Shown here piece after piece: positions 14,149 to 54,479 of a DNA stretch of 64,000 nt (position 1 is its first letter; the number at the start of each line of letters is the position of its first letter). The stretch is from positions 20,979 to 84,978 of the forward strand of contig JBASAA010000006.1 in NCBI GenBank assembly GCA_049650385.1. The letters are read 5' to 3'. Below the pieces are notes generated by a model, which did no database searches, had not been told where the DNA came from, and saw only the letters and a list, made by a program, of their open reading frames with translations. This DNA comes from Mesorhizobium sp. (lineage in GTDB: Bacteria > Pseudomonadota > Alphaproteobacteria > Rhizobiales > Rhizobiaceae). A program made the position numbers and the translations under genes.

Positions 14149-14153
14149 GCGAC

Positions 14154-37873: not shown

Positions 37874-37912
37874 AATTTCAAATCCCACCAGCCAACCAGC
37901 ACAGAGGCTATC

Positions 37913-38581: not shown

Positions 38582-38604
38582 GGGGAAGGGAAGTCGGCGG
38601 CTGG

Positions 38605-38631: not shown

Positions 38632-40066
38632 TTGCCGTCGGTTTCAGCACCTTGCCCGGGCGCGCACCGGTTGCCTTGCCTTCCTTCCATACCGGTTGGC
38701 CGTTCACCAGAACGAGGTCTATCCCCACCGATTCCAGGGTCGGCTGTTCGAACGTCGCCTTGTCGGCGATAGTCGCGGCGTCGAAAAGCACGACGTCGGC
38801 AAAGTTGCCGACCGCCAGACGACCGCGCCGGTCGAACCCGAATTCCTTTGCCGGCAGCCCCGTCATCCGGAAGACGGCCTCTTCGAGCGTAAAAAGGCCG
38901 AGATCACGGCAATAGTGCCCGAGGATGCGCGGGAACGTCCCCCATAGCCGCGGATGGGGATGCTTGTCGTGCGGCAGGCCGTCCGAGCCGATCATCGTGC
39001 GCGGATGGGCGAGAATGCGCTGGACGTCGTTTTCGTCGAGCTGGAAATAGACGGCGCCGGCCGGCAGCAGGCGCGCCGCCGCCTCCCTCTCGGTACACTG
39101 CCATTCGCCGGCGATATCGGCCAGGTAGCGGTTCGCCATGTCGGGATAAGGGTCGGACCAGGTGATGAGGATCGGCAGGCCGATATCGCAGCGCTCGAAT
39201 TTGAGCACGGTCGAGGAGGCAGCATAGGGGTAGCAGTCCTGGGCGATGTCGAGCGTCTGGCGGGCGGCGTCGATCTGGTCGAGGGTCGGCCCGCTCTTGC
39301 CGAAATTGTCGCGGCCCGTAACCTGATGGTGGGAGATGATCAACTTGTTGCCGGCATCGGTCGCAATCTCGATGGCCTCGTCGATCGCTTCCTCGAGCTT
39401 CTCGAAATAATTGCGGGTGTGAGTGACGTAGAGCCCGCCCGATTGCGCGGCGGTATGCGCCAATGCCTTGACCTCGCCGGTGGATGAATTCACGGCGGGG
39501 GCGTAGTCGAGGCCGCTCGAGAGGCCGAAGGCGCCGGCGGCCATGGCCTTGGCCACCTCATCCTGCATCAGCACGATCTCGTCTTCCGTCGCCGCATTGT
39601 CCATGCTGGGAAGAAAACGCTGCCTGAGCGTGGTATGGCCGACCAGAAGTGCTGCATTGGTCATCGCCCCGATGCGCGAAAGCTCGGAAACGTAATCCTC
39701 GAAACGGTCGAAGCGGAAATTTTCCTGGCCGCCGACAAGGGTGAAAGGCGGCGGCGGCGTGGCATCGAGCAGCAGCGGCGCCAGGCTTATGCCGCAGTTT
39801 CCGGCAACCACGGTCGTGACGCCCTGGCTGGTCTTCGCGGTCATCCCCTCGCTGGACAACAGCGCGCTGTCGTCATGGGTGTGGGCGTCGATGAAACCCG
39901 GCGCGACGACGCGGCCCGATGCGTCGATTTCCTGCCGGGCCTTCTCCCGCGACAGATCCCCCAGCGCCGCGATCATGCCGCCGTCGATGGCGACGTCGCC
40001 GGCGAAACGCGGCCCGCCGCTGCCGTCCACGACGGTGCCGCCGCGGATGATGATGTCGTATGTCAT
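38618..40066 (-). CDS. N-acyl-D-amino-acid deacylase (D-aminoacylase)
   Basis: MTYDIIIRGGTVVDGSGGPRFAGDVAI.GG.I..LG... and ...VAPGFIDAHTHDD... are the D-aminoacylase family N-terminus. The protein is 482 aa. Confidence 0.88.
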   Translation of the reverse strand: MTYDIIIRGGTVVDGSGGPRFAGDVAIDGGMIAALGDLSREKARQEIDASGRVVAPGFIDAHTHDDSALLSSEGMTAKTSQGVTTVVAGNCGISLAPLLLDATPPPPFTLVGGQENFRFDRFEDYVSELSRIGAMTNAALLVGHTTLRQRFLPSMDNAATEDEIVLMQDEVAKAMAAGAFGLSSGLDYAPAVNSSTGEVKALAHTAAQSGGLYVTHTRNYFEKLEEAIDEAIEIATDAGNKLIISHHQVTGRDNFGKSGPTLDQIDAARQTLDIAQDCYPYAASSTVLKFERCDIGLPILITWSDPYPDMANRYLADIAGEWQCTEREAAARLLPAGAVYFQLDENDVQRILAHPRTMIGSDGLPHDKHPHPRLWGTFPRILGHYCRDLGLFTLEEAVFRMTGLPAKEFGFDRRGRLAVGNFADVVLFDAATIADKATFEQPTLESVGIDLVLVNGQPVWKEGKATGARPGKVLKPTASSRH

Positions 40067-40946: not shown

Positions 40947-41134
40947 GGCAACCATCTTGATTTTCGATAATAAAGCACGATGGTATTCTCATTCCAAAAA
41001 TTACCAAGCCGGCGGCACAAAAAATCGAAGGCCATTGACGATGCATTTTTCGTTATGAATTGGCCGCCTGATCCCGTCTCCTGAAGGAACTGATGATGTG
41101 TCGCTTGGCGGCAGGTGAAGGGAGCACCGTACGG

Positions 41135-42208
41135 ATGCGGCTGTTTTCTCGGGTCGAGGGGATCGAGGCTTTTCCGCTGGCCGATTTCGGCGGGCACGAC
41201 AAGCCGACGCTGGCACAGAACGAAAGCGCATTTGCGCCGAGCCCGGCCGCGCTCGAAGCGGGAAGGGTCGCCCTTGCCCGGGCGGCGCTCTACCCCGATC
41301 CCGACTGGAACGAACTGCGTAGCGCGATTGCCGAAATCCATGGAGTGGAGCGCGGCCTCGTCCTGTGCGGCGCCGGCTCGATGGATTTGATTTCCTGTGT
41401 CATCAGGGCCTATTCGGGACCCGGGGATGAAATCCTTGCCAGCGCCTATACCTACCTGTTCGTCGCTTCCGCGGCCGCCCAGGCCGGCGCGACCTATGTG
41501 CAGGTAGCGGAAGACGATTTCGCCGTTTCGGTCGATCGCCTCATAGCCGCGGTAACGCCCGCTACCCGGATCGTCTTCCTGTGCAATCCGGGCAATCCCA
41601 CCGGCACCCGCATCGGGAACGCGGAGATCGTGCGCCTGCGAGCCTCATTGCCAGCCGATGTCCTGCTGGTGATCGACCAGGCCTATGGGGAGTTCGACGA
41701 CCAGGACCCGCGGCCGGTATTTCAACTCGTGAACGAGCGCAACACGGTCGTGCTGCGGACGCTGTCCAAGGCTTATGGTCTGGCGGGGCTGCGGGTGGGG
41801 TGGGGGCTGTTTCCGGCTGCCATCGGCCGGGAAGTGCGGAAGCTGGTGAACTCGAACAACGTCACCAGCGTGGCGCTGGCCATGGCAACCGCGGCGCTGC
41901 GGGACCGCGCCTACGTCAGCGATGTCGTCGGGCGTACAGCCATCATTCGCGACCGTCTCGCCGGCCAGTTGAGGGACGTCGGGTTCGAGGTCCCGTCCAG
42001 CTTCACGAATTTCGTTCTGGTCCGGTTTTCCGGCGAGGCGGAAGCCGCGCTGGCGGACGAGCGGCTGCGCGCGGACGGCCTGATCGCTCGCAAGGTTGCG
42101 GGCTACGGCCTGCGCGACTGCCTGCGCATAACGATCGGCCCCGAAGACGAAATGGCGCGTGTCGGCCACGTCCTCACCGGTCACGAACGGAAGAGCGGTG
42201 CGGCCTGA
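41135..42208 (+). CDS. Histidinol-phosphate-aminotransferase-like class I/II PLP aminotransferase
   Basis: ...FLCNPGNPTG... and the PLP-Lys context LRTLSKAYGLAGLRVGW. The start is at MRLFSRV, with GGGAG 11 nt upstream; the track ORF starts at 41093. Confidence 0.82.
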   Translation: MRLFSRVEGIEAFPLADFGGHDKPTLAQNESAFAPSPAALEAGRVALARAALYPDPDWNELRSAIAEIHGVERGLVLCGAGSMDLISCVIRAYSGPGDEILASAYTYLFVASAAAQAGATYVQVAEDDFAVSVDRLIAAVTPATRIVFLCNPGNPTGTRIGNAEIVRLRASLPADVLLVIDQAYGEFDDQDPRPVFQLVNERNTVVLRTLSKAYGLAGLRVGWGLFPAAIGREVRKLVNSNNVTSVALAMATAALRDRAYVSDVVGRTAIIRDRLAGQLRDVGFEVPSSFTNFVLVRFSGEAEAALADERLRADGLIARKVAGYGLRDCLRITIGPEDEMARVGHVLTGHERKSGAA

Positions 42209-42214: not shown

Positions 42215-43192
42215 TTAATGGCCGCGCGCCCGTAGCGGTGCCTGCCGGTACTTGAACCGGTAGCATTTCGAGAAATGCGAGGCTGAAAGGAAGCCGCAGG
42301 CGAGGCCGATCTCGGAAATCGTCATGTCGGTCTGCTGCAGCAGATGCCTGGCGCGTGCCAGCCTGAGGTCCATGTAGTATTTCAGCGGCGTACGGCCGAT
42401 ATGGCGCTGGAACAGGCGCTCCAGGTGCCGCGGCGAAATCCCGGCGGCCTCGGCAAGCTTCGGCGTCGGAACCGGGTCTTCGAGCCGCTCTTCCATCAAC
42501 CGGATGACAGCGCTCAGCCGGGGGTGGCGCAGGGCCATTCGGCCCGGCAGCGAGGTGCTGGCGGTTTCCTGTATCTTCCGGATCGAGGAATAGATCAGTT
42601 GCTCGGCGATCTCGCCGGCAAGCGCTGGCCCATGCATGTCCTCGACGAAACTCAGCACCAGGTCGACGGACGAAGTGCCGCCTGCGGTCGAGTAGCGGTG
42701 CCCGTCGATGACATAGGGGGAATGGCTGAGGATGACTTGCGGGAACTCCTCGGCAAAGCTGGTTTCGTTCTCCCAGTGGATGGTGGCGCGCTTGCCGTTG
42801 AGCAGGCCCGCCTTCGCCAGCGTATAGGTTGCGGTGCACAGGCCCCCTACGGGTACGCCATGCACCGCCTGGCGGCGCAGCCAGTCGATTATGGCCCTGG
42901 TTGAGGCGTGCTTGATATTGTCGCCGCCGCAAACCAGCACCGTTTCGGCCCCGTCAAGATTGGCCAGCCCCCGGTCGACGGGAAAGGGCACGCCGAGAGA
43001 CGAGCGAACCGGCTCGCCGGTTTCCGACATGAAGCTCCAACGGAAGGTTTCACTGCCGGCGATACGGTTGGCGACCCGCATCGTCTCGGCGCAGCAGGAC
43101 AGGGACAGCATCGAGAATCCGTCGAGAAGGAGGAAGACGAATGGCCTTGCGGCCTCGCATCGCTCCATTCCTTTCGGGATAACCAGCACCAT
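42215..43192 (-). CDS. GlxA-type (DJ-1/PfpI domain + AraC HTH) transcriptional regulator, GbdR/CdhR-like
   Basis: N-terminal ...FVFLLLDGFSMLSLSCCAETMRVAN... (DJ-1/ThiJ-like) and C-terminal ...ISEIGLACGFLSASHFSKCYRFKY (AraC HTH). It is the last gene of the sox/dmgdh same-strand run. Confidence 0.85.
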   Translation of the reverse strand: MVLVIPKGMERCEAARPFVFLLLDGFSMLSLSCCAETMRVANRIAGSETFRWSFMSETGEPVRSSLGVPFPVDRGLANLDGAETVLVCGGDNIKHASTRAIIDWLRRQAVHGVPVGGLCTATYTLAKAGLLNGKRATIHWENETSFAEEFPQVILSHSPYVIDGHRYSTAGGTSSVDLVLSFVEDMHGPALAGEIAEQLIYSSIRKIQETASTSLPGRMALRHPRLSAVIRLMEERLEDPVPTPKLAEAAGISPRHLERLFQRHIGRTPLKYYMDLRLARARHLLQQTDMTISEIGLACGFLSASHFSKCYRFKYRQAPLRARGH

Positions 43193-43261
43193 GTCCCTAG
43201 CCCCGGATGGTTAGAGAATTTCCAGCAAGAGTGTGAAACGCCTTTGCGTCCGTCATAGGGG

Positions 43262-45682
43262 TCAGGTACGCAGCTTTTCGCCCTTCGGGTCGAAGGGAGG
43301 GCGTTCCAGCACGCGCGCCTTGTGGGGACGGCCGAGGATGGCGACGGAAACCTCGTCGCCGGGCCTTGCCTTGCCAGCCTTGAGGGTGCCGAGCGCCAGC
43401 GACATGCCGACCGAATAGCCGTAAGCTCCAGAGGTCACCTGTCCGGCCGGCGTGCCGTCGGGCAGGAAGATCGGCTCGCCGCCGGTGGCGTCGGCATCGG
43501 CGGCCTCGATGGCCACCATCACCAGCGTGTCGCGCGCCGGCCGGTCGGCGATGGCGGCATAGGCATCGCGGTTGAGGAAGTCGCCCTTGTCCATCTTGAC
43601 CAGGCGGGCCATCCCCACTTCCTGCGGCCAGTATTCGGTCGAATATTCGCGCCCCCAACTGCCATAGCCTTTCTCCACACGCAGCGACATCAGCGCACGC
43701 GAACCCACCGGGCCACCGCCGAGCTTGCGGGCCTCGTCGATCAGCGCGCGATAGAGCGCGATCTGATCGGCTTCGGCGCAATGCAGTTCCCAGCCTAGGT
43801 CGCCGGTGAAGGAAACGCGCAGCGCGATCACTTTTATGCCCGCCACCTCGATGCGGCGCGAGCGCATGAACGAGAACGCCGGAGTGGAAAGGTCTGCATT
43901 CGTCAGCGCCTGCAACAACTGCCGCGCCTTCGGCCCTGCGACATTGAAGCCGGACATCTGCTCGGTCATCGAGGTGAAGCTGGTGCCGGCCGGCAGGGGA
44001 ACGGCCCGGAAATAGCGCTGGTGGAAGCGCTCGGCCATGCCGGAGCCGAACATCATGAACTCTTCCTCGCCCAGACGCGTCACCGTGAAGTCGCCGGCGA
44101 TGCCGCCGCGCTTGCCGATCATCGGCGTCAGGCACGAACGGCCGATCTCGGCCGGCATGCGGTTGGCGAGCAGCCCGTTCAGCCAGTCTTCGGCGCCCGG
44201 TCCCTCGATCCGGTATCTGGCGTAGTTGGAAATGTCGATGACGCCGACATGTTCGCGCAGCATGCGCGCCTCGCGGCCGACCGGCTGCCACCAGTTCTGG
44301 CGCGTGAAGCCGTTGGTCTCCTCGCGCGGTTCGTCATCGGCCGCGAACCACAGCGGATGCTCCCACCCGTAATTGAGGCCGAACACGGCTCCCATTTCCT
44401 TCTGCATGGCATAGGCCGGGCGCGTGCGCACCGGCCGGCCGGCCGCACGTTCCTCGTTCGGAAAATGGATCTTGAAGCGATGGCTGTACTGGTCCTGCAC
44501 GCGCGCTTTGGTGAAGGCCTTGTTCGCCCAGTGGCCGAAGCGGGCCATGTCCCAGCCGAACATGTCGAGCGACGGCTCGCCGTCGATGATCCATTCCGCC
44601 GCCAGCTTGCCCAGCCCGCCCGATTGCGAGAAGCCGGGGATCAGGCCGATGCAGCAGAAATAGTTGGTGAGCTCGGGCACCGGCCCGAACAGCGCCGAAC
44701 TGTCGGGCGACCAGATCATCGGCCCGTTGATCACCCGCTTGATGCCGGCGCTGCCGGCCGCAGGCACGCGCGTGATGGCGCGCATCATGTTTTCCTCGAT
44801 CCGCTCGAGATCGTCGGGGAACAGTTCGTGGCCGAAATCCAGCGGCGTGCCGTCCTCGGCCCAGAACTTCATGTTGCGTTCATAGGCGCCGATGAGCAGG
44901 CCGAGGCCTTCCTGGCGAAGGTAGTATTCGCCGTCGCGGTCGGCCACCGACGGCAGCCGCCGGTCGAGCGCGGCGATCTCGGGGATCGTCTCGGTAACGA
45001 AATACTGGTGCTCGGTCGGGATCAGGGGCACCGTCAGTCCTGCCAGCGCCGCCACCTCGCGCGCCCACAGGCCGGCGGCGTTGACCACCCATTGCGTGCG
45101 GATGTCGCCCTTGTCGGTGCGCACGATCCAGCTTCCGTCGGCCTGCTGCTCCGTCGCGGTCGCGGCGGTGAAGCGATGGATATCGGCGCCGCGCTGGCGC
45201 GCTCCTGCCGCATAGGCCATGGTGACGCCGGACGGGTCGACATTGCCGCCCTGCGGCTCGAACATGATGCAGCGCACGCCGTCGAAATCGACCAGCGGAT
45301 GCAGCCGCTCGGCGTCGGCCCGGCTGACCTCGTAGAAGTCCATGCCGTAGCGGCGCGCCTTGGCCTCCTGCAACCGCAACTGGTGCTCGCGCGCCTCGGT
45401 TTGCGCCAGATAGAGCGAACCCGGCTGGAAGACGCCGCAGCCTTGCCCCGTCTCGGCCTCCAGTTCCTTGTAGAGCGCCATCGTATAGTGCTGGAGCCGG
45501 CTGATATTGGTCGAATCGTGCAGGCCGTGGATGTTGGCCGCCGCGTGCCAGGTCGAGCCGGACGTGAGCTCGGAGCGTTCCAGGAGAACGACGTCGGACC
45601 AGCCGTGCTTGGCGAGGTGGTACAGGATCGAGCAGCCGATCAGCCCGCCGCCGATAACAACCACCTGGGCATGTGTACGCAT
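43262..45682 (-). CDS. Dimethylglycine/sarcosine-dehydrogenase-type enzyme (FAD DAO domain + GcvT folate-binding domain)
   Basis: MRTHAQVVVIGGGLIGCSILYHL and ...SGSTWHAAANIHG..., the site context for covalent flavin His. The C-terminal aminomethyltransferase-like half carries ...GFTGDLGWELH... The protein is 806 aa from the ATG at 45682; the track ORF extends to 45874. Confidence 0.88.
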   Translation of the reverse strand: MRTHAQVVVIGGGLIGCSILYHLAKHGWSDVVLLERSELTSGSTWHAAANIHGLHDSTNISRLQHYTMALYKELEAETGQGCGVFQPGSLYLAQTEAREHQLRLQEAKARRYGMDFYEVSRADAERLHPLVDFDGVRCIMFEPQGGNVDPSGVTMAYAAGARQRGADIHRFTAATATEQQADGSWIVRTDKGDIRTQWVVNAAGLWAREVAALAGLTVPLIPTEHQYFVTETIPEIAALDRRLPSVADRDGEYYLRQEGLGLLIGAYERNMKFWAEDGTPLDFGHELFPDDLERIEENMMRAITRVPAAGSAGIKRVINGPMIWSPDSSALFGPVPELTNYFCCIGLIPGFSQSGGLGKLAAEWIIDGEPSLDMFGWDMARFGHWANKAFTKARVQDQYSHRFKIHFPNEERAAGRPVRTRPAYAMQKEMGAVFGLNYGWEHPLWFAADDEPREETNGFTRQNWWQPVGREARMLREHVGVIDISNYARYRIEGPGAEDWLNGLLANRMPAEIGRSCLTPMIGKRGGIAGDFTVTRLGEEEFMMFGSGMAERFHQRYFRAVPLPAGTSFTSMTEQMSGFNVAGPKARQLLQALTNADLSTPAFSFMRSRRIEVAGIKVIALRVSFTGDLGWELHCAEADQIALYRALIDEARKLGGGPVGSRALMSLRVEKGYGSWGREYSTEYWPQEVGMARLVKMDKGDFLNRDAYAAIADRPARDTLVMVAIEAADADATGGEPIFLPDGTPAGQVTSGAYGYSVGMSLALGTLKAGKARPGDEVSVAILGRPHKARVLERPPFDPKGEKLRT

Positions 45683-45759
45683 ATGGGAATCTTCCTTGTT
45701 CAATCTGACGAGATGGCCCGGACCTCGAGGCCGGGCCGATAGGCGAGCTGGCCCGTGCG

Positions 45760-47298
45760 TCACGGTTCGTCGGAACCGATCTCCTCGCGCCGTCTCGCGA
45801 CATAGGCGTCCAGTTCCTCGCGAATGGCGGGGTCCATCTGCGGTTCTTCGTATTCGTGCAAGGCCTGCTGCCACAAAAGGGTCGCCCGATCGAGCGCGTC
45901 CTTGCCGCCGGCTTCCTGCCAGGCGCCGTAGTTCTGCCAGTTCGACAGCATCGGCTGGTAGAAGGCGGTCGAGTAGCGCGCCATCGTATGCTCCGAGCCG
46001 AAGAAGTGGCCGCCCGTCGGCACACCCTTGATGGCCTCGAAGCCGAGGTCGTCTTCCTGGAACGGCACCGGGCGCAGGAACTCGATCATGTTCTGGAGGA
46101 TTTCCACGTCGAGGATCAGCTTTTCATAGGAAGCGGTCAGGCCGCCCTCCAGCCAGCCGGCGGCATGGTAGATCATGTTGGCGCCGCCGAGCATCGCGCC
46201 CCAGGTCGCCATCTCGGTCTCGTAGGCCGCCTGCAGGTCGACCGCGTTGGAGGCATTGGCGTTGGAGGTGCGGTAGGGCAGCCCGTAGCGGCGGGCAAGC
46301 TGGCCGCCGATAATGTTGGCCTTGGCGTTTTCCGGCGTGCCGAAGGCGGGCGCACCAGAACGCATGTCCACGTTGGAAGTGAAGGCCCCGTACATGACCG
46401 GTGTTCCCGGATTGACGAGCTGGGTAAGCACGGCGCCGAACAGCGCCTCGGCGTTCTGCTGCGACAGGGCCGCCGCCAGCGTCACCGGCGTCATCGCCCC
46501 CATCAGGGTGAACGGGGTTATGGTGACCGGCTGGCCGTGCTCGGCCATGGCGATCAGCCCCTCGGCCATCGCCCCGTCGAACAGGCGCGGCGAGTTGACC
46601 GAGATGATGGTGATGACGCCGGGCGAAGCCCGCATCTCCTCGACCGGGATGCCCCGGGCGATCGCCATCATGTTGATGCCGTCGGTGGCGCGGCCCCGGC
46701 CGATGGCCGTGCAGTGGAAGCTGAGGTCGCTCAGCGTCAGGTTGGCCCGATAGGTATCGAGATGGCGTGAATTCGCCGGCAGTTCCACCGGGGCGACGAC
46801 CTGGTTGCCGATGATGTGGATGGCGTTGAAATAATGCGCCAGGCGGATGAAATTTTTGTAGTCCTCCAGGTTTCCCTGGCGCCTGCCGTTCACCCGGTCA
46901 TGGACGTTGGGCGGACCAGCGACGAGACCGAAGGCGATGTTGCTGCCGCCGATCTCGAGTTGCTTGGCGGGATTGCGGCTGGTCAACGTAAACGTGTGCG
47001 GCGCGGATTTCAGCGCCGCCATCACCAGGCTTTCGTCGATGCGCACGGTTCCTTCGCCGCGGTCGACGATGGCGCCGGCCTTTTCGAAGATGCCGAGCAC
47101 CTTTTCATCGAGCACCCGGATGCCGAGTTCGGACAGGATACGCATCGAAGTCCGATGCAGGGCCTCCATCCTGTCCTCGTCGAAAAGCTGCATCGGCGCG
47201 TTGTTGTTGACGACCTGCTGCCAGGGCAGTTGCGGGATGCTGGCGCCTGCCCGTTCGGTCTTTCCCCGCCGTCCGCCGCTTCGTCTTTCCTGCGTCAT
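45760..47298 (-). CDS. MttB-family (trimethylamine methyltransferase superfamily) protein, non-pyrrolysine type
   Basis: 512-aa uninterrupted ORF with no in-frame TAG. Blocks ...NSPRL..., ...SNVDMRSGAPAFGTPE..., ...AAGWLEGGLTASYEKLILD... and ...GGHFFGSEHTMARY... are shared with the paralogue at 56680. Confidence 0.88.
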   Translation of the reverse strand: MTQERRSGGRRGKTERAGASIPQLPWQQVVNNNAPMQLFDEDRMEALHRTSMRILSELGIRVLDEKVLGIFEKAGAIVDRGEGTVRIDESLVMAALKSAPHTFTLTSRNPAKQLEIGGSNIAFGLVAGPPNVHDRVNGRRQGNLEDYKNFIRLAHYFNAIHIIGNQVVAPVELPANSRHLDTYRANLTLSDLSFHCTAIGRGRATDGINMMAIARGIPVEEMRASPGVITIISVNSPRLFDGAMAEGLIAMAEHGQPVTITPFTLMGAMTPVTLAAALSQQNAEALFGAVLTQLVNPGTPVMYGAFTSNVDMRSGAPAFGTPENAKANIIGGQLARRYGLPYRTSNANASNAVDLQAAYETEMATWGAMLGGANMIYHAAGWLEGGLTASYEKLILDVEILQNMIEFLRPVPFQEDDLGFEAIKGVPTGGHFFGSEHTMARYSTAFYQPMLSNWQNYGAWQEAGGKDALDRATLLWQQALHEYEEPQMDPAIREELDAYVARRREEIGSDEP

Positions 47299-47318
47299 CG
47301 ATACGTCCTTCCTTTGCG

Positions 47319-48296
47319 TCAGTAGCCGCGCTGCGGCATCACGACGTTCTGCAACGGTTCGCCGCGCCTGTAGCGCGCAAGGTTGTCAGAGAACATGCGC
47401 ACCGCCTTGAGATCCCAGCCTTCATAGATGGAGGAGCAATGCGGAGTGATCGTCACGTTCTCGTAAGCCCATAACGGGTTTTCCGGCGGCAGCGGTTCGG
47501 CCTCGAATACGTCGAGCGCCGCCCCCGCGAGGCGTCCCGCGTCGAGGGCCGCCATCAACGCCGTCTGGTCGACGACGCCGCCGCGCGAGACGTCGACCAG
47601 GAAGGCTCCCGGCTTGATCGACGCCAGCGCGGCAGGGCCGACGAGGCCTTTGGTGCCGGGAAGAAGAGGCACGCAGACGACGATGAAATCAGCGCGCGGC
47701 CATAGCGATGGCAGTCCCTGTTCGCCATGGACTTCGTCGACGCCAGCGACGGCGGCAGGCTGCGCCCTGACCCCGATGACGGTCATGCCCATGGCCTTGG
47801 CGCGCTGCGCCACCGCCTGCCCGGTCTTGCCCAGGCCGAGGACGAGGACGGTGCGGCCCTCGATCGGGCGCATCGGTTGGGGTGCCCAGCGCCGCTCCTG
47901 CTGTCGGTGTTGGAAGCCGCGCAGGTCGAGCGAGAACGACAGCATGGCGCCGAGCACGTATTCCGCCATCATGTTGGCGGCGACACCTGCGGCGTTCGTC
48001 ACCGTTACCTTCCCGGGGTCCCATGGCTGCAGGTGGTCCGTGCCGGACCCGCCGACCGATACCCACCTGACCGTCGGGTTCTCGACGAGCGTGGTGCGGG
48101 GGAATTGCGGCGTTCCAGCGAAACGGACGGAGTAGACAACCTCCGCCCCGGTGCGCGCGATGAGACCGGGCAGGCCCGAATAGTCGTCACAGGCATGGAT
48201 ATCGAGATCGCCATGATCAACACGAAGTGCCTCCAGCGCCGGGGCCGGGGCGTTCGTGTGCAGGATGACGGTCGGCTGCCGGGACATCGCGATCAT
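47319..48296 (-). CDS. D-isomer-specific 2-hydroxyacid dehydrogenase family (NAD-binding)
   Basis: NAD loop VLVLGLGKTGQAVA and the Arg-Glu-His catalytic contexts VSRGGVVD, DVFEAEPLP and TITPHCSS. The start ATG at 48296 directly abuts the soxG stop at 48293-48295. The track ORF extends to 48623. Confidence 0.85.
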   Translation of the reverse strand: MIAMSRQPTVILHTNAPAPALEALRVDHGDLDIHACDDYSGLPGLIARTGAEVVYSVRFAGTPQFPRTTLVENPTVRWVSVGGSGTDHLQPWDPGKVTVTNAAGVAANMMAEYVLGAMLSFSLDLRGFQHRQQERRWAPQPMRPIEGRTVLVLGLGKTGQAVAQRAKAMGMTVIGVRAQPAAVAGVDEVHGEQGLPSLWPRADFIVVCVPLLPGTKGLVGPAALASIKPGAFLVDVSRGGVVDQTALMAALDAGRLAGAALDVFEAEPLPPENPLWAYENVTITPHCSSIYEGWDLKAVRMFSDNLARYRRGEPLQNVVMPQRGY

Positions 48297-48913
48297 CTCG
48301 ACGGCCCGGCGGAAGAGCGGACATCCTCGGTTTCCGGCATCGTTTGCCGGATGGTTTCGGCAATCCCGACCGCCCGCGCGAAGAAGGCCGCGAGCGAAAT
48401 GTCGAACAGGATATCGAAGCCGTCCCCGCTTCTCGCCACGACCGCTTCTATCGAAGCCGCGCGGGTTTGCGCAATCCGGCCGGGGCCGAAGTGTTCGGGG
48501 CGAAGGTCCATGGCGCAGAGCCGCGCCATCAGGGCGCCCGCATCCGGGCCGGACAGGCGCATCCACGCCCAGCCTTCCTCGCGCCAGGAGGAATAGCCGC
48601 GGACGCCGTCTGCCTTGTTCCACGTGTCCACCAGCCGGCCGAGAGCGCTTGCGGCATCCTCGGCCAGGAACAAGACGTCATCGCTTCCGAGGCGCAGGAC
48701 CCGCATGCCGTCATGCATGCCGACGTGGTTGATGGCGGGAAGGTCGAGTCCCTGGGAAGCCAGCCAGTTGGCGGTACTGGGACCTTTGATCCCGAAGCGG
48801 GGTTTTGCGGTAAGGTCGTTCAGCGCGATGCGGCCGCTGGGCAGCGGCAGGTCCGCTGCGGCACCGCCGGGTGCGAACGGAAACAGGCGCTGCGCGGAGG
48901 AAAATTGCATCAT
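48293..48913 (-). CDS. soxG: Sarcosine oxidase gamma subunit
   Basis: A 206-aa ORF starting 1 nt after the soxA stop. The sequence carries ...PRFGIKGP...WLASQGLDLP... and ...RLSGPDAGALMARLCAMDL... Position and size are typical of SoxG. Confidence 0.85.
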   Translation of the reverse strand: MMQFSSAQRLFPFAPGGAAADLPLPSGRIALNDLTAKPRFGIKGPSTANWLASQGLDLPAINHVGMHDGMRVLRLGSDDVLFLAEDAASALGRLVDTWNKADGVRGYSSWREEGWAWMRLSGPDAGALMARLCAMDLRPEHFGPGRIAQTRAASIEAVVARSGDGFDILFDISLAAFFARAVGIAETIRQTMPETEDVRSSAGPSR

Positions 48914-48914
48914 G

Positions 48915-51773
48915 CTACAGGTCCTGACGCCTGTTTTCCGGGTCGAAGAACGTATGCGCGACCACGGAAGCCTCGATGATTCGCCCGTTGCCGCATCGAA
49001 TGGAGATACGCGACCCTTTCGCGTTGTCCTCGGCATGAACATAGGCGAGGGCGATCGGATAGCCCAGCGTCGGCGAATGACCGATCGAGGTGATGGCGCC
49101 GACCGGGTTGCCGTGGCGCAGCACCAGGCTGCCCTCATCCGGCAGGTCGCCGGCGTCGGACGGAAACGCCAGCCCGACGAGACGACGCTTCTGGTCAAGG
49201 CGCGCCCGCATCTCGATCGAGCGCTTGCCTACGAAAAAGGGCTTCTTCTTCGATAAGGCCCAGGTGAAGTCCAATTCATCGGGGGTGGTCAGGGCGTCGG
49301 TATCCTGGCCGATCAGGATGTGCCCTTTTTCCAGCCGCAGGATGCGGGACGCTTCCAGCCCGTAGGGGCGCAGGCCATGCGGCTGGCCGGCCGCCATGAC
49401 CGCATCCCACAGCGCTGGCGCGTAACTCGAAGGGCAGTGCAGTTCGTAACTGATCTCGCCGGTGAAGCCGATGCGCATGGCGCGAACCGGGACGCCGGCC
49501 AGCACGCCTTCATGTCCGCCGAGATAAGGGAATGCTTCGCGGCTGAAATCGATGTCGCTTTCCATCGCCTCAAGGACAGCCCGCGCGTTCGGCCCGGTCA
49601 GGTTGAGGCCCGAAAAAGCGCTGGTGAGATTGAGCACGTCGACCTTCAGCCGCCACTGCGCATTCCAGAACAGCATGTCGGCATAGACGCGCGCGACGGC
49701 GCCGGTCGTCGAGGTGACGTAGAAACGGTCCTCGGCAAGGCGGTAGGCGACCCCGTCGTCGATGACGGAACCCATCTCGTTGAGCATCAGGCAATAGCGC
49801 ACCCTGCCGACCGGCTGGTTCGCGTGCGCCATCGTATAGAGCCGGTCCATGAAGAGGCCGGCGTCCGGGCCGCGGACTTCGAGCTTGCCGAGCGTAGACA
49901 CATCGAGCAGTCCGGCCTGGTTGCGTACGGCCGCCACTTCCTGCCTGGTCAGTTCGGCGGCCTGCTCCGGCGCGCCGTAGAAATAGGGTCGCCACCAGGA
50001 GCCGACGGGCTTCATGCGCGCCGCGAGCGCGACGTGCCGGGCGTGCAGCGAGGTTCGCCGTTCGAGGGCGTGGTGATGGCCGGCGAGCAGCCCCAGCTTT
50101 TCCGGTCCGGTCGGGGGCCGTGCGGTCGTCACCCCCATCTGGCCGACCCGGCGCCCGGTAGCGGTAGCGACGATGCGTGCGGTGGCGACCGCCGAATGGC
50201 GGCCCTGGCTGGGACCCATGCCGACCGTGGTGAAGCGCTTGGTCAGTTCGAGTTCGCTGTAACCTTCCTCGACGGCGTTCAGAAGATCCTTGATCTGGAG
50301 GTCCTCGTCGAAATCGACGAAATCGCGCCCCTTGGGATGCGGGACGAGCGGCTGCGCATATCCATTCGCGGCCGGCGGACGCAAGCGGTCCTCCGTGACC
50401 GGCAGCGACCCATGCCCGAGGTCGGAAAGGGCTGCCTGCGCGACCCGCTGTCCATCCATGATCGCGCTTTCCAACCCGGTGTTGCCGGCGATGGAGCCGC
50501 ACAGGCGAACATTGTCGCGCTCAAGCTCCAGCACCATGCGCGCAGAAGCGTCTTCATAGCCGACTTTTGCCCCTGCCTGGCATGGGAGCTGCCATGCGGG
50601 AGCCTTGCCGATCGATACGGAAAGCAGGTCGCACTCCATCCAGCGGCCCGCCACCTTCACGGCGGCGACATGCCTGTTGCCGGCGGTGCCCCTGGCTTCT
50701 TCGACCATGACCCCGGACAGAATTTCGACGCCCTGGGCGCGTAACGCCGCCTGCGCGCCGTTTGCGGTTCCGGCGGGGCGAGGGTCGATCAGCGCCGTGA
50801 TTGTGACGCCGGCGTCGAGCAGGTCCTGCGCGACATCGTAGCCGTCGCCGTCGGCCGCCAGCACCACGGCACGCGTGCCGGGCCGCACCGCGTAGTGCCG
50901 CATCAGCCGCTGCACCGCGCCGCCGTGGAGGATGCCGGGCAGATCGTTGTTGCGGAAGACGGCCGGTTGCTCGATCGTTCCGGCGGCGAGGACGACCTGA
51001 CGCGCACGGGCACGATAGAGCCGGTTTTGCTGGATCAGCGGCAGCCAGTTGTCTTCGAACCAGCCATTGCAGATGGTGCCGGTGAGGATGCGCAGGTTCG
51101 GCAGCGAGCGCGCTTCCCTCACGAGGTCGGACAAGGCCACTCCGTCGCTGCGCCGATAGGTCAGCGATCCGCCCGGCTCGGTGTTCTCGTCGCAGATGAC
51201 CACGTCCGCGCCGGCCTTCGCCGCGAGGATGGCGGCGGAAAGTCCCGCAGGACCAGCGCCGACGACCAGCACGTCGCAATGCAGGTTGACCTGATCGAAA
51301 AACTGGTGCGGCGTGGCGGTGTCGACCGTGCCGAGGCCCGCCTTTCGGCGGATCAAGGGCTCCCACAGCTTCAGCCAGCTGTCGCGCCGGGGTCCCATGA
51401 AGGTGCGGTAGTAGAAGCCGACCGGCAGGAAGCGCCCGAGCCGGTCCATCAGCGCATCACGGTCGCGATCCAGCGAACCGGAGACGTTCTGGGCGCTGAC
51501 GGTCATGCCGTCGCGGATTGGTTCCCGGTCGGCCTGCACGTTCGGCTCATGCCCGGCCTGCACCAGCGTATTGGCTTCGGCGCCGGCCATGCTGACCGCC
51601 CCTCGCGGCCTGTGGTATTTGAAGGAGCGCGACAGCACCCATTGCCCCGACGCGGCCAGGGCGCTGGCGATCGTATCGCCGTCGAAACCTTCGAAAGCCT
51701 TGCCCTCGAAGGTGAAGCGGACCGGGCGCAGCCGGTCGAGGCGGGTGCCCCATGGAGCGGGAAGCCGGTTCAT
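48915..51773 (-). CDS. soxA: Sarcosine oxidase alpha subunit
   Basis: MNRLPAPWGTRLDRLRPVRFTFEGKAFEGFDGDTIASALAASG...SFKYHRPRG, then VLVVGAGPAGLSAA, and a C-terminal GcvT-like domain ...IGFTGEISYELH... The protein is 952 aa from the ATG at 51773. Confidence 0.92.
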   Translation of the reverse strand: MNRLPAPWGTRLDRLRPVRFTFEGKAFEGFDGDTIASALAASGQWVLSRSFKYHRPRGAVSMAGAEANTLVQAGHEPNVQADREPIRDGMTVSAQNVSGSLDRDRDALMDRLGRFLPVGFYYRTFMGPRRDSWLKLWEPLIRRKAGLGTVDTATPHQFFDQVNLHCDVLVVGAGPAGLSAAILAAKAGADVVICDENTEPGGSLTYRRSDGVALSDLVREARSLPNLRILTGTICNGWFEDNWLPLIQQNRLYRARARQVVLAAGTIEQPAVFRNNDLPGILHGGAVQRLMRHYAVRPGTRAVVLAADGDGYDVAQDLLDAGVTITALIDPRPAGTANGAQAALRAQGVEILSGVMVEEARGTAGNRHVAAVKVAGRWMECDLLSVSIGKAPAWQLPCQAGAKVGYEDASARMVLELERDNVRLCGSIAGNTGLESAIMDGQRVAQAALSDLGHGSLPVTEDRLRPPAANGYAQPLVPHPKGRDFVDFDEDLQIKDLLNAVEEGYSELELTKRFTTVGMGPSQGRHSAVATARIVATATGRRVGQMGVTTARPPTGPEKLGLLAGHHHALERRTSLHARHVALAARMKPVGSWWRPYFYGAPEQAAELTRQEVAAVRNQAGLLDVSTLGKLEVRGPDAGLFMDRLYTMAHANQPVGRVRYCLMLNEMGSVIDDGVAYRLAEDRFYVTSTTGAVARVYADMLFWNAQWRLKVDVLNLTSAFSGLNLTGPNARAVLEAMESDIDFSREAFPYLGGHEGVLAGVPVRAMRIGFTGEISYELHCPSSYAPALWDAVMAAGQPHGLRPYGLEASRILRLEKGHILIGQDTDALTTPDELDFTWALSKKKPFFVGKRSIEMRARLDQKRRLVGLAFPSDAGDLPDEGSLVLRHGNPVGAITSIGHSPTLGYPIALAYVHAEDNAKGSRISIRCGNGRIIEASVVAHTFFDPENRRQDL

Positions 51774-52036
51774 GGCCGTTCCCCGATTCCGGCAGGCAGG
51801 AAGGTGCGGACGACCTCGTTGGATTCCGTGTCGCGCTCGGCCAGGAAGAACACGTTGCTGGGCACGTGGCGCCACCATTCGACGATGATGCCCTTGCGGT
51901 TGTCGGCCCTGAACAGGTGCAGGCCCCATTCGGCGTCGCTTGCCTTTTCCGGGTCGAGTGCTTCGCGCAGGGGGCCGAACGACTGGAACTCGTCGATGTT
52001 GCGAAGGCCGTTCACGGGACATGCCAGGAGTTTCAT
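51770..52036 (-). CDS. soxD: Sarcosine oxidase delta subunit
   Basis: 88 aa, MKLLACPVNGLRNIDEF...WWRHVPS... It has an ATGA overlap with the soxA start. Confidence 0.9.
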   Translation of the reverse strand: MKLLACPVNGLRNIDEFQSFGPLREALDPEKASDAEWGLHLFRADNRKGIIVEWWRHVPSNVFFLAERDTESNEVVRTFLPAGIGERP

Positions 52037-52043
52037 CGCCGCC

Positions 52044-53285
52044 TCAGTGACTCGCCGCCGTTGCGCCCATTTCGTTCAGGAGACTGAACGACTGGAACCG
52101 TTCCAGGGAAAACGGCTTCAGGATGTCCGGCACCCTGCCACCGGCGATCGTTTCGGCCATGCGCTTGCCGGCCACAGGCGTGGCCTTGAACCCCCAGGTG
52201 CCCCAGCCGCAATCGAGCCACAGATTGGCGAGCGGACTCGCTCCCATGATCGGGCTGTAGTCGGGCGTCATGTCGGTGATGCCGGCCCATTGCCGGAGCA
52301 GGCGCACGTTTTGCAGAAACGGGAAAAGATGCACGGCGCCCGCAGCGAGGTGCTCCTTCATGTCCAGCGTCGAGCGTGTCGAATAAAGCTGGTAGGGATC
52401 CGAACCGCCGCCGATGACGATCTCGCCCCGGGAGGACTGGACGAGATAGGTGTGCAGCGACACCGACGACACGAGCGTGTGCAGCCACGGCTTGAGCGGC
52501 TGCGTCACCATCGCCTGGAGGGGGTAGCAGCGGATCGGCAATTCAACGCCCGCCTTCAGCGCCATCTCGTAGTTCATTCCTCCGGTGGCGATCATGGCCT
52601 GCCCGCAGGAGATCGCGCCGCGGTCGGTTACGACCTTCCGGACACGCCCGCCGCCGATCTCGAAGGCGGTCACCTCGGTGCGCTGATGTATTTCGACGCC
52701 GCGCCGGCTTGCCTGCGCGGCGTACCCCCAGGCGACCGCGTCATGGCGGGCCGTGCCGCCGTCGGCGTGCCAAAGGCCGCCGAGGATCTCGAGCGGACCG
52801 CCATAATCCATGTTCAGCAGGGGCGAGAGCTTCTCGACTTCCTTCTGGTCGACCACCTCGGTGCGCGTGCCGAGATGGGTCCCCATCGCGGCGCGCGCCT
52901 TGAAGCTGCGCAGCGTCGCCTCGGTATGCGCCAGCGTGAGCTGGCCCCGCTGGGAAAACATCACGTTGAAGTCGAGTTCCTGCGACATGCGCTCGTAGAG
53001 TTCGACCCCTTCCTTATAGAAGGCAATACCCTCGGGCGTGATGTAGTTGGAGCGGATGGTGGTGGTGTTGCGGGCCGTATTGCCGCCCGCCAGATAGCCC
53101 TTCTCCAGAACCGCGACATCGGTGATGCCATGATATTTCGACAGATAGTGCGCGCAAGCAAGGCCGTGCCCGCCCCCACCGATGATGACGACGTCGTAGT
53201 GGCGTTTCAGGTCGGGTGTCGGCGGTATGTCGCGCCGCGCAGGATAGGTGCGGCTGAAACCGTATTTGAGGAGGCTAAAGGGCAT
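52044..53285 (-). CDS. soxB: Sarcosine oxidase beta subunit
   Basis: MPFSLLKYGFSR...HYDVVIIGGGGHGLACAHYL...GGNTARNTTTIRSNY... The protein is 413 aa from the ATG at 53285; the track ORF extends to 53411. Confidence 0.92.
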   Translation of the reverse strand: MPFSLLKYGFSRTYPARRDIPPTPDLKRHYDVVIIGGGGHGLACAHYLSKYHGITDVAVLEKGYLAGGNTARNTTTIRSNYITPEGIAFYKEGVELYERMSQELDFNVMFSQRGQLTLAHTEATLRSFKARAAMGTHLGTRTEVVDQKEVEKLSPLLNMDYGGPLEILGGLWHADGGTARHDAVAWGYAAQASRRGVEIHQRTEVTAFEIGGGRVRKVVTDRGAISCGQAMIATGGMNYEMALKAGVELPIRCYPLQAMVTQPLKPWLHTLVSSVSLHTYLVQSSRGEIVIGGGSDPYQLYSTRSTLDMKEHLAAGAVHLFPFLQNVRLLRQWAGITDMTPDYSPIMGASPLANLWLDCGWGTWGFKATPVAGKRMAETIAGGRVPDILKPFSLERFQSFSLLNEMGATAASH

Positions 53286-53438
53286 GGCGACCGGGAGCCT
53301 CGGGCCGGCCGAAGGCGAAAATGCGCGCGCTTTCCTCGTGGGGGTGCGATGGCGCCAGACCCGCCGCGCGGATGTTCGTGCAACTGGAGACGAGGCCCGT
53401 CCCATGATCACGCTGCGATCGGCTCACGAACGCCACTT

Positions 53439-53466
53439 TCATATCTCCCCCATCGTCGAGATATGA
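53439..53466. promoter_or_regulatory. LysR-type dyad in the soxB / LysR divergent region
   Basis: TCATATCTC (53439-53447), a 10-nt spacer, then GAGATATGA (53458-53466), forming perfect 9-bp arms. It lies immediately upstream of the candidate LysR promoter. Confidence 0.4.
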
Positions 53467-53471
53467 TTAAT

Positions 53472-53499
53472 TTGACCTCATATGGAATTCACGTAATAA
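53472..53499 (+). promoter_or_regulatory. Sigma70-like promoter for the LysR gene
   Basis: TTGACC (53472-53477), a 16-nt spacer, then TAATAA (53494-53499), about 95 nt upstream of the ATG at 53595. Confidence 0.3.
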
Positions 53500-53594
53500 G
53501 TTCAGCCTCATTGCTCAAAAAAAACGATGCCACTGCCCTGCCACACCGCAACTGCCGGAGGTAAGGGCGCTTTCGAGAGCCTTGGGAACCGGGG

Positions 53595-54479
53595 ATGAAG
53601 CCGCCACCGCCTCTGAATTACATTCGCTCCTTCGAGTGCTCGGCGCGGCATTTGAGCTTCACCGCGGCCGCGAGCGAACTCGGATACACCCAGGCTGCCG
53701 TCAGCAATCATGTGCGGGCGCTGGAGCATTATATCGGCCGGCAGCTATTCGTCCGCTATCCGCGCAGCCTCAAGCTGACCGAGGTCGGGGAGGCGTTCCT
53801 GCCGACGTTGCGGCAGGCGCTCGAACAGATCGACTTCGCCACCGACGCGATCGTGGCTTCGGCGCGCAACCGTACCGTCGTCGTCTCCTGCCCGATGAGC
53901 CTTGCCGAGAATTGGCTGGCCGGCTGCATGGCTGCCTTCAACGTGAAGCATCCGGAGACGGAGCTGCTCCTGCACGGCACCATATGGGAGGACATGAACG
54001 AACAGGCGGCCGACATCACCATTTCCATTCGCCGCTTCGATGACCGCCCGGCCGATGCTGTTCCGCTGTGGCGCGACAAGCTGGCGCTTTTATGCGCGCC
54101 GGGGCTGCTCGAAGGACCCCGCAAGCTTGAGGAACCGGCCGATATCCTGAATTTCGACTGGATATTCGTCCATGGCCGCCAGGAATACTGGAAGGCCATG
54201 AGCGAGGCGCTGGGGATCACCACGTCGGGGCATGAAAAGGGCATCACCACCAATGCCTCCAACATCGCGCTGGAACTGGCGGCGATGGGCACTGGCTGCG
54301 TCGCCATGCAGGTTTCGCTGGCGCGCATCTATCTGCAACGGGGTCTGCTCGTGGAGCCGTTTGCAATCCGTGCCGCCAGCCCGTGGAGCTATTACCTCGG
54401 CACCAACCAGCTTTCGAAGAGCAGTGCCGTCAGGCGGGCGAAGGAATGGATCATCGCGCACGGCAAGGAAATGGAATAG
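53595..54479 (+). CDS. LysR-family transcriptional regulator (GcvA-like)
   Basis: HTH ...LNYIRSFECSARHLSFTAAASELGYTQAAVSNHVRALEHYIG... The gene is divergent from soxB. Confidence 0.9.
   Translation: MKPPPPLNYIRSFECSARHLSFTAAASELGYTQAAVSNHVRALEHYIGRQLFVRYPRSLKLTEVGEAFLPTLRQALEQIDFATDAIVASARNRTVVVSCPMSLAENWLAGCMAAFNVKHPETELLLHGTIWEDMNEQAADITISIRRFDDRPADAVPLWRDKLALLCAPGLLEGPRKLEEPADILNFDWIFVHGRQEYWKAMSEALGITTSGHEKGITTNASNIALELAAMGTGCVAMQVSLARIYLQRGLLVEPFAIRAASPWSYYLGTNQLSKSSAVRRAKEWIIAHGKEME

Follow-up and report, generated by a model that had tools for sequence, protein, structure and literature searches.

A paralogue of the MttB methyltransferase superfamily beside two N-demethylases in Mesorhizobium sp., and its probable place in a split cobalamin-dependent demethylation system

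Introduction

What does a methyltransferase of the MttB superfamily act on, and with which partners does it work, when its gene lies among N-demethylases and no corrinoid protein is encoded nearby? This question is raised by a 64,000-nucleotide stretch of DNA from Mesorhizobium sp., a soil-dwelling member of the Aquamicrobium/Mesorhizobium group (GenBank assembly GCA_049650385.1, contig JBASAA010000006.1, positions 20,979 to 84,978), hereafter the window, in which a run of eight genes includes one for a non-pyrrolysine MttB homologue, MttB1, together with genes for enzymes resembling heterotetrameric sarcosine oxidase (SoxBDAG) and dimethylglycine dehydrogenase (DMGDH). Methylated osmolytes are major sources of carbon, nitrogen, and energy in soil, in the rhizosphere, and in the sea, and the finding in 2025 of modular, B12-dependent demethylation in aerobes left the role of extra MttB paralogues open.

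In that work, Mausz et al. (2025, PNAS; PMC12478193) used proteomics and mtgC and mtgD knockouts, both of which were unable to use glycine betaine, to show that aerobic Ruegeria pomeroyi demethylates this compound via the PF06253 methyltransferase MtgB together with MtgC, MtgD, RamA, and a DUF1638 protein. The proteins induced by glycine betaine were MtgB1 (SPO2108), MtgB2 (SPO2134), MtgC (SPO2160), MtgD (SPO1863), MetF2, RamA (SPO2041), and the DUF1638 protein (SPO2162), and the genes of the system are dispersed, with mtgB1 and mtgB2 far from mtgC, mtgD, and ramA. Up to seven PF06253 paralogues occur per genome, and the authors proposed that other methylated compounds feed the same cobalamin route (PMC12478193). 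A first-pass annotation of the window, made from its sequence, had held that characterized non-pyrrolysine members come from anaerobes, a statement that R. pomeroyi makes outdated at the genetic level. It had also held that the role it assigned to the MttB homologue was not established biochemically, which has been superseded for the system by the proteomic and knockout evidence. Since this type of system has already been shown in aerobic bacteria, the open question is which methylated compound MttB1 acts on.

By analogy with R. pomeroyi, we propose that MttB1 is probably the substrate-specific "B" module of an aerobic, split, cobalamin-dependent MtgB-MtgC-MtgD/RamA/DUF1638 system, and that it would act on a carboxylated quaternary amine. 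The evidence lies in its family membership, its substrate pocket, the genes that accompany its orthologues, and the partner loci found in related genomes.

Results

The MttB1 open reading frame (ORF) comprises 512 codons with zero internal stops, and the first-pass observation of an uninterrupted frame without an in-frame amber codon held up: the pyrrolysine position of Methanosarcina barkeri MttB (X in the structure 7XCL; Pyl334) is Ala347 in MttB1, and the profile for pyrrolysine-dependent MttB, TIGR02369, scored 304.9 bits against a cut-off of 525. The translation matched PF06253 over profile positions 1-500 of 500 (E 8.9e-206), and its residues 6-509 aligned end to end, with no large gaps, with 4YYC, with 9YCE/2QNE (Desulfitobacterium hafniense MtgB), and with 7XCL. 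The closest entry in the PDB is 4YYC, an unpublished structure deposited as a "putative trimethylamine methyltransferase."

Despite this full-length match, MttB1 lies outside the orthogroup of canonical aerobic MtgB, to which 4YYC belongs and which we delimited by more than 80% identity within Rhizobiales and by adjacency to mtgC, DUF1638, metF2, mtgD, and ramA. Canonical aerobic MtgB proteins (4YYC and those of loci L090 and L091) are 81-84% identical among themselves and 43-45% identical to D. hafniense MtgB, whereas MttB1 is 37% identical to the canonical proteins and likewise 37% identical to the D. hafniense enzyme; in the window and at 80 orthologous loci, its gene is also never beside a corrinoid gene, which the canonical mtgB gene adjoins. 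It does share with the canonical rhizobial type the superfamily, the length, the HxAGWLEGG motif, an Arg/His pair, and a Gly at the Phe356 position discussed below. Other paralogues that we compared, namely MttB2 of the window and two extra copies in an Aestuariivirga metagenome-assembled genome (MAG; locus L048), are 45-53% identical to MttB1. By its sequence, then, MttB1 is a paralogue distinct from the canonical glycine betaine MtgB.

The paralogue is not confined to this contig. Identity is 100% to a protein of a MAG labeled Mesorhizobium sp., on an identical contig (L001), and 99% to a protein of Aquamicrobium soli KCTC 52165, where the gene order is equal (L007). Orthologues of 75-85% identity occur in Mesorhizobium, Phyllobacterium, Pseudaminobacter, Shinella, Labrys, Sinorhizobium (pSymA), Rhizobium, Aestuariivirga, and Parvibaculaceae, and also in the roseobacters Ruegeria arenilitoris, Leisingera, Thalassobius, and Halocynthiibacter. 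Sinorhizobium meliloti carries both types, a canonical chromosomal MtgB and an 84% identical MttB1 orthologue on pSymA. MttB1 is a widespread paralogue with its own pocket and its own conserved neighborhood. Literature searches for 4YYC, and for MttB combined with MmgE/PrpD, brought up no work on the function of the MttB1 clade.

The pocket can be read against the structure of D. hafniense MtgB with glycine betaine bound (Picking et al. 2026; PMC13080624), in which Tyr97 and Phe356 form a cage around the trimethylammonium group and the carboxylate is bound by Arg312 and His348. In that enzyme, Y97A and F356L raised the Km several hundred-fold, R312L left activity undetected, and H348E left a trace only; characterized quaternary-amine members share Arg312 and, for the most part, His348, and the aromatic pair is not conserved among them (PMC13080624). 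At positions 97, 312, 348, and 356, where D. hafniense MtgB has Tyr, Arg, His, and Phe (loop at 97, VFMPGYGAPFI), canonical aerobic MtgB has Tyr, Arg, His, and Gly (VFAPVYGPPF), MttB1 has Ala127, Arg343, His378, and Gly386 (FGLVAGPPN), and MttB2 has Cys, Arg, His, and Gly (AFVAGCGCPNV). MttB1 therefore keeps the carboxylate pair and lacks the aromatic pair, and its Ala/Arg/His/Gly signature was found in 86 of 86 aligned MttB1-type sequences, a set that takes in one remoter L048 paralogue of 47% identity. This residue pattern would fit a methyltransferase for carboxylated quaternary amines, the substrate not necessarily being glycine betaine, and the smaller side chains in place of the two aromatics hint at a more spacious pocket. 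A similar pattern is published for the non-pyrrolysine Eubacterium limosum enzymes MtpB, MtcB, MtyB, and MthB (methyltransferases for proline betaine, carnitine, gamma-butyrobetaine, and phosphocholine), in which Arg312 and largely His348 occur without the aromatic pair.

The pocket bears on two other explanations. The first takes MttB1 for an MtgB isozyme that likewise demethylates glycine betaine, the run converting this compound to dimethylglycine, sarcosine, and glycine; we consider it rather unlikely. The retained carboxylate-binding Arg and His would suit such an enzyme, and Phe356 is dispensable, since it is missing from canonical aerobic MtgB as well. However, MttB1 has Ala exactly where the change of Tyr97 to Ala cost D. 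hafniense MtgB several hundred-fold in Km, and the canonical and D. hafniense enzymes, which resemble each other more than either resembles MttB1, both keep Tyr97. The second explanation is that MttB1 acts on a non-quaternary substrate (for example, a tertiary amine or, among sulfonium compounds, dimethylsulfoniopropionate) or is a non-catalytic relic. The loss of the aromatic cage would be in keeping with it, but the protein is conserved at 75-99% identity over Rhizobiales and roseobacters, its pocket signature does not vary, and its frame is intact with a coding-like G+C content at third codon positions (GC3). We find this second explanation very improbable.

Two further sets of paralogues were seen alongside MttB1. 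The Aestuariivirga MAG locus L048 holds three MttB paralogues within 9 kb, 81%, 52%, and 47% identical to MttB1, with the signatures Ala/Arg/His/Gly, Gly/Arg/His/Gly, and Ala/Arg/His/Gly, respectively; a DMGDH-type gene is present there and a corrinoid gene is absent. MttB2, which the first-pass annotation had not mentioned, is 46% identical to MttB1 and lies beside a divergent TetR gene and genes for an SBP_bac_5 protein and an Opp/Dpp-type ATP-binding cassette (ABC) transporter (Table 1). A 57% identical SBP_bac_5 protein adjoins the MttB1 cluster in Mesorhizobium loci that lack Sox genes. The MttB2 region has the look of a second module, for the uptake and demethylation of some other methylated compound.

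The neighborhoods of MttB1 orthologues were surveyed at 80 species-level loci, within 10 kb on either side, with ORFs labeled by BLASTP against proteins of the window and of reference loci. The most conserved partner was a GcvA-like LysR regulator, whose gene was found at 72 of the 80 loci and in every case was transcribed divergently from the operon. A 2-hydroxyacid dehydrogenase gene stood directly upstream of the MttB1 orthologue at 60, and genes for a PrpD/MmgE-family protein, an isochorismatase, and a DHDPS-family protein were found at 57, 57, and 49 loci, respectively. SoxBDAG-like genes occurred at about 40 loci (soxB orthologues, 83-87% identical), and DMGDH-type genes adjoined the orthologue at 31 (66-98% identical); an MLE-subgroup enolase together with an OpuAC-type betaine binding protein was encoded at 13. 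HisC-like aminotransferase genes were seen at 10 loci, with orthologues of 54-60% identity lying immediately 3' of MttB1 in roseobacters and Parvibaculaceae. Across the 80 species the MttB1 orthologue is tied to SoxBDAG-like genes, to a DMGDH-type gene, or to both, and this constant tie to N-demethylases with tetrahydrofolate (THF) domains, together with the betaine binding proteins, supports a role in demethylating an ammonium compound.

Two arrangements recur. In Type I (Mesorhizobium and roseobacters), a divergent LysR gene is followed by PrpD-like, [SoxBDAG], DHDPS-like, 2-hydroxyacid dehydrogenase, and MttB genes, the Sox set being variable; in Sox-less variants, DMGDH-type and SBP_bac_5 genes lie just upstream. 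In Type II (Sinorhizobium, Shinella, Labrys, and Rhizobium), DMGDH and LysR genes precede MttB, GlxA, DddP-like M24, isochorismatase, OpuA-type ABC transporter, MLE enolase (PDB 2PGW), and Ldh_2 genes, and an OpuAC/ProX-type quaternary-amine binding protein with its ABC transporter is encoded beside the orthologue in loci of the Sinorhizobium, Shinella, and Labrys type. The window and A. soli are hybrids, with SoxBDAG, DMGDH, and a GlxA gene of their own but without a PrpD-like or DHDPS-like gene. All three demethylases plus the aminotransferase are also found in some roseobacters (L079, L081, and L084).

These neighborhoods weigh on both explanations introduced above. A DddP-like M24 protein beside the orthologue in Sinorhizobium-type loci could speak for a sulfonium substrate, but the linked genes for N-demethylases and OpuAC-type betaine binding proteins argue against any non-quaternary one. 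In favor of a glycine betaine isozyme, the run has three demethylases, one for each methyl group of glycine betaine, and R. pomeroyi has two MtgB paralogues that are induced by this compound. Salt induction of mttB and fhs in Mesorhizobium alhagi points in the same direction: both were strongly salt-induced there, with an mttB mutant showing no salt phenotype and the paralogue unspecified (PMC4302635). Against it, most Mesorhizobium loci have just one of the two downstream demethylases close to MttB1, and the 2-hydroxyacid dehydrogenase, PrpD-like, and DHDPS-like proteins have no role in glycine betaine catabolism, which leaves their linkage unexplained.

In S. meliloti, the genes beside the MttB1 orthologue form a betaine island on plasmid pB (L087), and strain 1021 has this region on pSymA, at around 812 kb. 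The island encodes a Rieske oxygenase pair, a DMGDH-type protein, GlxA, isochorismatase, an OpuA-type betaine ABC transporter, the 2PGW enolase-superfamily protein, Ldh_2, and a DddP-like M24 protein that scores 315 bits against a cut-off of 600. A link to (hydroxy)proline betaine through HpbD was considered and not adopted: the MR_MLE gene of the Sinorhizobium-type locus corresponds to PDB 2PGW, no solved HpbD was close at E <= 1e-30, no NCBIfam equivalog was found, and the Paracoccus denitrificans pathway runs on Rieske demethylases and HpbA. This compound is kept as one candidate among several.

Where, then, are the corrinoid partners? The first-pass report that no ORF in the 64 kb resembles a B12-binding protein, a pterin-binding methyltransferase, or an activase was confirmed. 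Pfam scans of 58 ORF translations spanning the window gave no B12-binding, Pterin_bind, RACo/RamA, DUF1638, or MTHFR domain, and phmmer searches with four Escherichia coli MetH domains (homocysteine, pterin, cobalamin, and activation) against six-frame segments of at least 50 amino acids gave none at E <= 10. An Rfam scan of the window returned no cobalamin riboswitch and no other family, and a B12-binding or pterin-binding gene was found at 0 of the 80 orthologue loci. The motif DxHxxG...SxL...GG, sought in the ORFs of the 80 loci and in the six frames of the window, gave only shadow-frame and low-complexity matches, which were rejected, in agreement with the phmmer searches.

Such absences, along with the altered pocket, could favor a corrinoid-free MttB1 that passes its methyl group directly to THF, homocysteine, or another acceptor, or by way of free cobalamin, which would explain the missing linked partner. 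We judge this very improbable: all characterized members of the superfamily methylate a corrinoid, MttB1 has no added domain or insertion relative to its corrinoid-dependent relatives, dispersed partner genes are documented in R. pomeroyi, and a partner locus was found in the same genus and family. The different methyl acceptor that the first-pass annotation allowed for is possible, but nothing that we found points to it.

That partner locus is the canonical mtg locus. A sequence search identified 4YYC as a Sinorhizobium chromosomal protein and as the MtgB of the mtg locus there (L089), whose order is RACo/RamA, Pterin_bind, MTHFR, DUF1638, B12-binding, MttB (4YYC), S-methyl_trans (Bmt/MtgE), OpuAC, and CbiA, which matches the S. 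meliloti arrangement given by Mausz et al. (PMC12478193). The locus is also present in L090, a 7.9-Mb relative, whose MtgC as a query led to a corrinoid protein (P0265) with a 90% cluster named from Aquamicrobium terrae. Loci bearing P0265 (L091 and L092) encode S-methyl_trans, a 533-amino-acid MttB, MtgC, DUF1638, a formyl-THF deformylase-like protein, MTHFR, Pterin_bind, and RACo. With such a locus in Aquamicrobium-type and Sinorhizobium genomes, the model of a partner encoded elsewhere is, by analogy, well supported for the genus and the family. An OpuAC gene lies in the mtg loci of L089 and L090, and a GlxA-type regulator gene adjoins that of L090.

The proposal that the MttB homologue performs the first demethylation, with partners elsewhere and ahead of DMGDH and sarcosine oxidase, is therefore strengthened by the R. 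pomeroyi analogy and by the genus-level mtg locus. The step named for it, betaine to dimethylglycine, is doubtful because of the low identity of MttB1 to canonical MtgB, the lost aromatics, and the conserved neighbors, the HisC-like aminotransferase among them, for which glycine betaine catabolism has no need. Taken as a whole, the earlier interpretation is partly supported: it was right in kind, outdated on novelty, and probably too narrow on substrate.

The genes of the run are listed in Table 1, with coordinates from an ORF list with refined start codons, checked against the gene calls on the identical public contig, and families assigned by Pfam and NCBIfam profile scans of the ORF translations. 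Eight same-strand genes were found in the order given by the first-pass annotation and with its gaps of -4 to 77 nt; from soxB to GlxA/AraC the gaps are 7, -4, 1, 5, 20, 77, and 69 nt, and the soxG ATG lies 1 nt past the soxA stop. The G+C content of the window is 59-68%, and real genes are marked by a GC3 of about 0.75-0.85. In loci L004 and L005, the soxG-like slot is also filled, by an unannotated gene of 187-193 amino acids. A promoter and terminator scan gave nothing above chance. The divergent intergenic region between soxB and the LysR gene, which contains the sole sigma-70-like match of the scan, is likely the control region of the operon.

Table 1. Coordinates of the features of the window and of related loci
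Feature	Sequence	Positions	Strand	Details
soxB-like, beta subunit of heterotetrameric sarcosine-oxidase-family N-demethylase	window	52044-53285	minus	413 aa; PF01266 DAO + TIGR01373
soxD-like, delta subunit	window	51770-52036	minus	88 aa; PF04267 SoxD, E 4.7e-19; 4-nt overlap with soxA start
soxA-like, alpha subunit	window	48915-51773	minus	952 aa; Fer2_4, SO_alpha_A3, C-terminal tetrahydrofolate-binding GCV_T, GCV_T_C; TIGR01372
soxG-like, gamma subunit	window	48293-48913	minus	206 aa; weak TIGR01375 only, E 1.5e-8
D-2-hydroxyacid dehydrogenase	window	47319-48287	minus	322 aa; PF02826 2-Hacid_dh_C
MttB1, non-pyrrolysine MttB-superfamily methyltransferase	window	45760-47298	minus	512 aa; PF06253
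DMGDH/sarcosine-dehydrogenase-type N-demethylase	window	43262-45682	minus	806 aa; DAO + FAO_M + GCV_T + GCV_T_C; FAD- and tetrahydrofolate-dependent by family
GlxA/AraC regulator (GATase1-like + HTH)	window	42215-43192	minus	325 aa; DJ-1_PfpI + HTH_18
LysR regulator, GcvA-like, divergent from run	window	53595-54479	plus	HTH_1 + LysR_substrate; GcvA subfamily 210 bits
HisC-like class I/II aminotransferase, convergent with run	window	41093-42208	plus	PF00155; TIGR01141 hisC 249 bits, below cut-off 276.55
Divergent intergenic region, soxB to GcvA-like LysR	window	53286-53594		309 nt
Sigma-70-like match	window	53438-53467	plus	inside the divergent intergenic region
MttB2	window	56680-58248	plus	522 aa; PF06253, E 1.7e-191
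TetR, divergent from MttB2	window	55887-56558
SBP_bac_5	window	58297-59955
Opp/Dpp-type ABC genes	window	59958-63751	minus
Amidohydrolase cluster	window	34237-40066		Amidohydro_1, CN_hydrolase, peptidase M20, isochorismatase, Amidohydro_3
MmgE/PrpD cluster	window	6109-15833	plus	MmgE/PrpD, luciferase-like monooxygenase, zinc alcohol dehydrogenase, flavin reductase, triple-rhodanese, AMP-binding ligase, SDR, Amidohydro_2
Canonical mtg locus	L089	1335-16163
Canonical mtg locus	L090	3133-14620
Canonical mtg locus	L091	1256-15821
S. meliloti betaine island	L087	7399-10095 and 13977-28209		plasmid pB
Three MttB paralogues	L048	9914-19049		Aestuariivirga MAG

The enzymes downstream of the proposed methyl transfer belong to recognizable families. 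The soxBDAG label of the first-pass annotation is borne out in family and gene order, B-D-A-G with a GCV_T domain in the alpha subunit, and the soxB-like and soxA-like proteins score 361 bits to the beta subunit of TSOX (2GAG_B) and 413 bits to the solved alpha subunit 1VRQ_A, respectively. The scores fall short of the curated NCBIfam cut-offs (soxA, 863.8 against 1164; soxB, 454.5 against 529.45; soxG, 34.7 against 143.95), so we call the enzyme sox-like rather than a proven sarcosine oxidase. The DMGDH-type protein has the architecture of its family and scores 599 bits to human DMGDH (5L46) over residues 3-796. For the 2-hydroxyacid dehydrogenase, the top NCBIfam model was D-2-hydroxyacid dehydrogenase, at 212 bits below its cut-off of 400. 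The GlxA/AraC regulator has the expected architecture, and its top model was GbdR (NF052371), at 300.6 bits below the equivalog cut-off of 480; this exact regulator is restricted to the window, the identical MAG contig (L001), and A. soli.

Here too the case for a glycine betaine isozyme is divided. GbdR as the top model of the regulator would favor it, but the score under the GbdR cut-off and the sox scores under those of sarcosine oxidase do not. In Phaeobacter inhibens, one of three sox operons is strongly induced by glycine betaine, and another is induced by algae but not by glycine betaine (PMC13381886); sox paralogues therefore do differ in their inducer, and an operon of this family that is unresponsive to glycine betaine counts against the isozyme.

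Two other gene clusters of the window were noted. The amidohydrolase cluster is syntenic with genes that lie directly 3' of MttB1 in Mesorhizobium, where the cluster adds DAO, FrhB-like, and RidA genes; in the window, four genes, those for the DMGDH-type protein, GlxA, the aminotransferase, and LysR, stand between the cluster and MttB1. It resembles hydantoin or N-carbamoyl-amino-acid type pathways. The PrpD protein of the MmgE/PrpD cluster shares only some 27% identity with the PrpD-like protein tied to MttB1 elsewhere.

Discussion

We propose the following course for the reaction. The TIM-barrel pocket of MttB1 would take a quaternary amine bearing a carboxylate, and one N-methyl group would pass to the Co(I) corrinoid carried by an MtgC-type protein whose gene lies at another place in the genome. 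An MtgD-type pterin methyltransferase would transfer the methyl group on to THF, while a RamA-type activase would keep the corrinoid reduced. The N,N-dimethyl product would then be demethylated by the adjacent DMGDH-type enzyme and the N-methyl product by the adjacent SoxBDAG-like enzyme, yielding a primary amine or amino acid, and both enzymes, which carry a GCV_T domain, would release the methyl groups as methylene-THF. The carbon skeleton would probably fall to the 2-hydroxyacid dehydrogenase and the HisC-like aminotransferase, and the divergent LysR and terminal GlxA regulators would control expression. What we infer in this scheme is that MttB1 depends on cobalamin and uses the shared MtgC/MtgD core, as well as the sequence of the reactions and the compound acted on.

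Several known systems help to place the proposal. Like the R. pomeroyi system, the window shows a PF06253 methyltransferase of an aerobic alphaproteobacterium that has no partner genes nearby and several paralogues per genome, and THF-linked demethylation of the di- and monomethyl products is predicted to follow. Unlike SPO2108 and SPO2134, which are orphans beside guaA and an outer-membrane-protein gene, MttB1 lies inside a demethylase operon, a comparison made by neighboring genes and not by sequence. D. hafniense MtgB (2QNE and 9YCE) aligns with MttB1 over its full length, with equivalents of Arg312 and His348, but comes from an anaerobe in which its gene shares an operon with those of MtgC and MtgA. 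In E. limosum, many "B" modules work on one corrinoid protein, but this organism is a strict anaerobe, and its products receive no DMGDH-type or Sox-type demethylation. The glycine betaine regulon of Pseudomonas aeruginosa (GbcAB, DgcAB, SoxBDAG, and GbdR) resembles the window in pairing a GlxA/GATase1-AraC regulator with a soxBDAG-type operon for the breakdown of methylated amines, but its first step is carried out by the Rieske oxygenase GbcAB rather than by an MttB protein, and the GlxA and sox proteins of the window fall below the GbdR and sox cut-offs.

Some observations weigh against the proposal. In R. pomeroyi the deletions were of mtgC and mtgD only, MtgB itself being neither deleted nor assayed in vitro (PMC12478193), and the methyl-transfer activity of MttB1 is predicted. 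Corrinoid, pterin-binding, and activase genes are absent from the 64 kb and from the surroundings of all 80 orthologues; with the partners absent in cis, the cobalamin dependence of MttB1 is predicted from homology and the precedent of R. pomeroyi. MttB1 also lacks the aromatic pair that encloses the trimethylammonium group in D. hafniense MtgB, and its binding mode, even its substrate class, could differ from that of MtgB. Finally, the eight genes are read as an operon from their spacing only.

Within the proposed role, a different and probably bulkier carboxylated betaine may be at least as likely a substrate as glycine betaine because of the changed pocket and the conserved neighbors. A bolder suggestion, which we offer tentatively and hold to be somewhat short of an even chance, is that the MttB1 clade, which reaches from Mesorhizobium, Aquamicrobium, and Sinorhizobium to Ruegeria and Leisingera with 75-99% identity, points to a so far undescribed, B12-dependent route by which aerobes break down some betaine that is not glycine betaine. 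In such a pathway the enlarged pocket would take an amino-acid-type betaine, its demethylation would fall to MttB1, the DMGDH-type enzyme, and the SoxBDAG-like enzyme, and the skeleton would be degraded by the 2-hydroxyacid dehydrogenase, the PrpD-like and DHDPS-like proteins, and the HisC-like aminotransferase. Candidate substrates, named here as speculation, are homoserine betaine (from the betaine lipids DGTS), beta-alanine betaine, hercynine, hypaphorine, and (hydroxy)proline betaine.

The locus gives a widespread MttB paralogue a testable context, with regulators of its own, two downstream demethylases, and a diagnostic pocket signature. If glycine betaine is the true substrate, MttB1 would be an ordinary isozyme. 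Once identified, the substrate of MttB1 could add a route of betaine turnover, widen the demand for cobalamin in aerobic bacteria, and improve the annotation of thousands of genes labeled "trimethylamine methyltransferase family protein."

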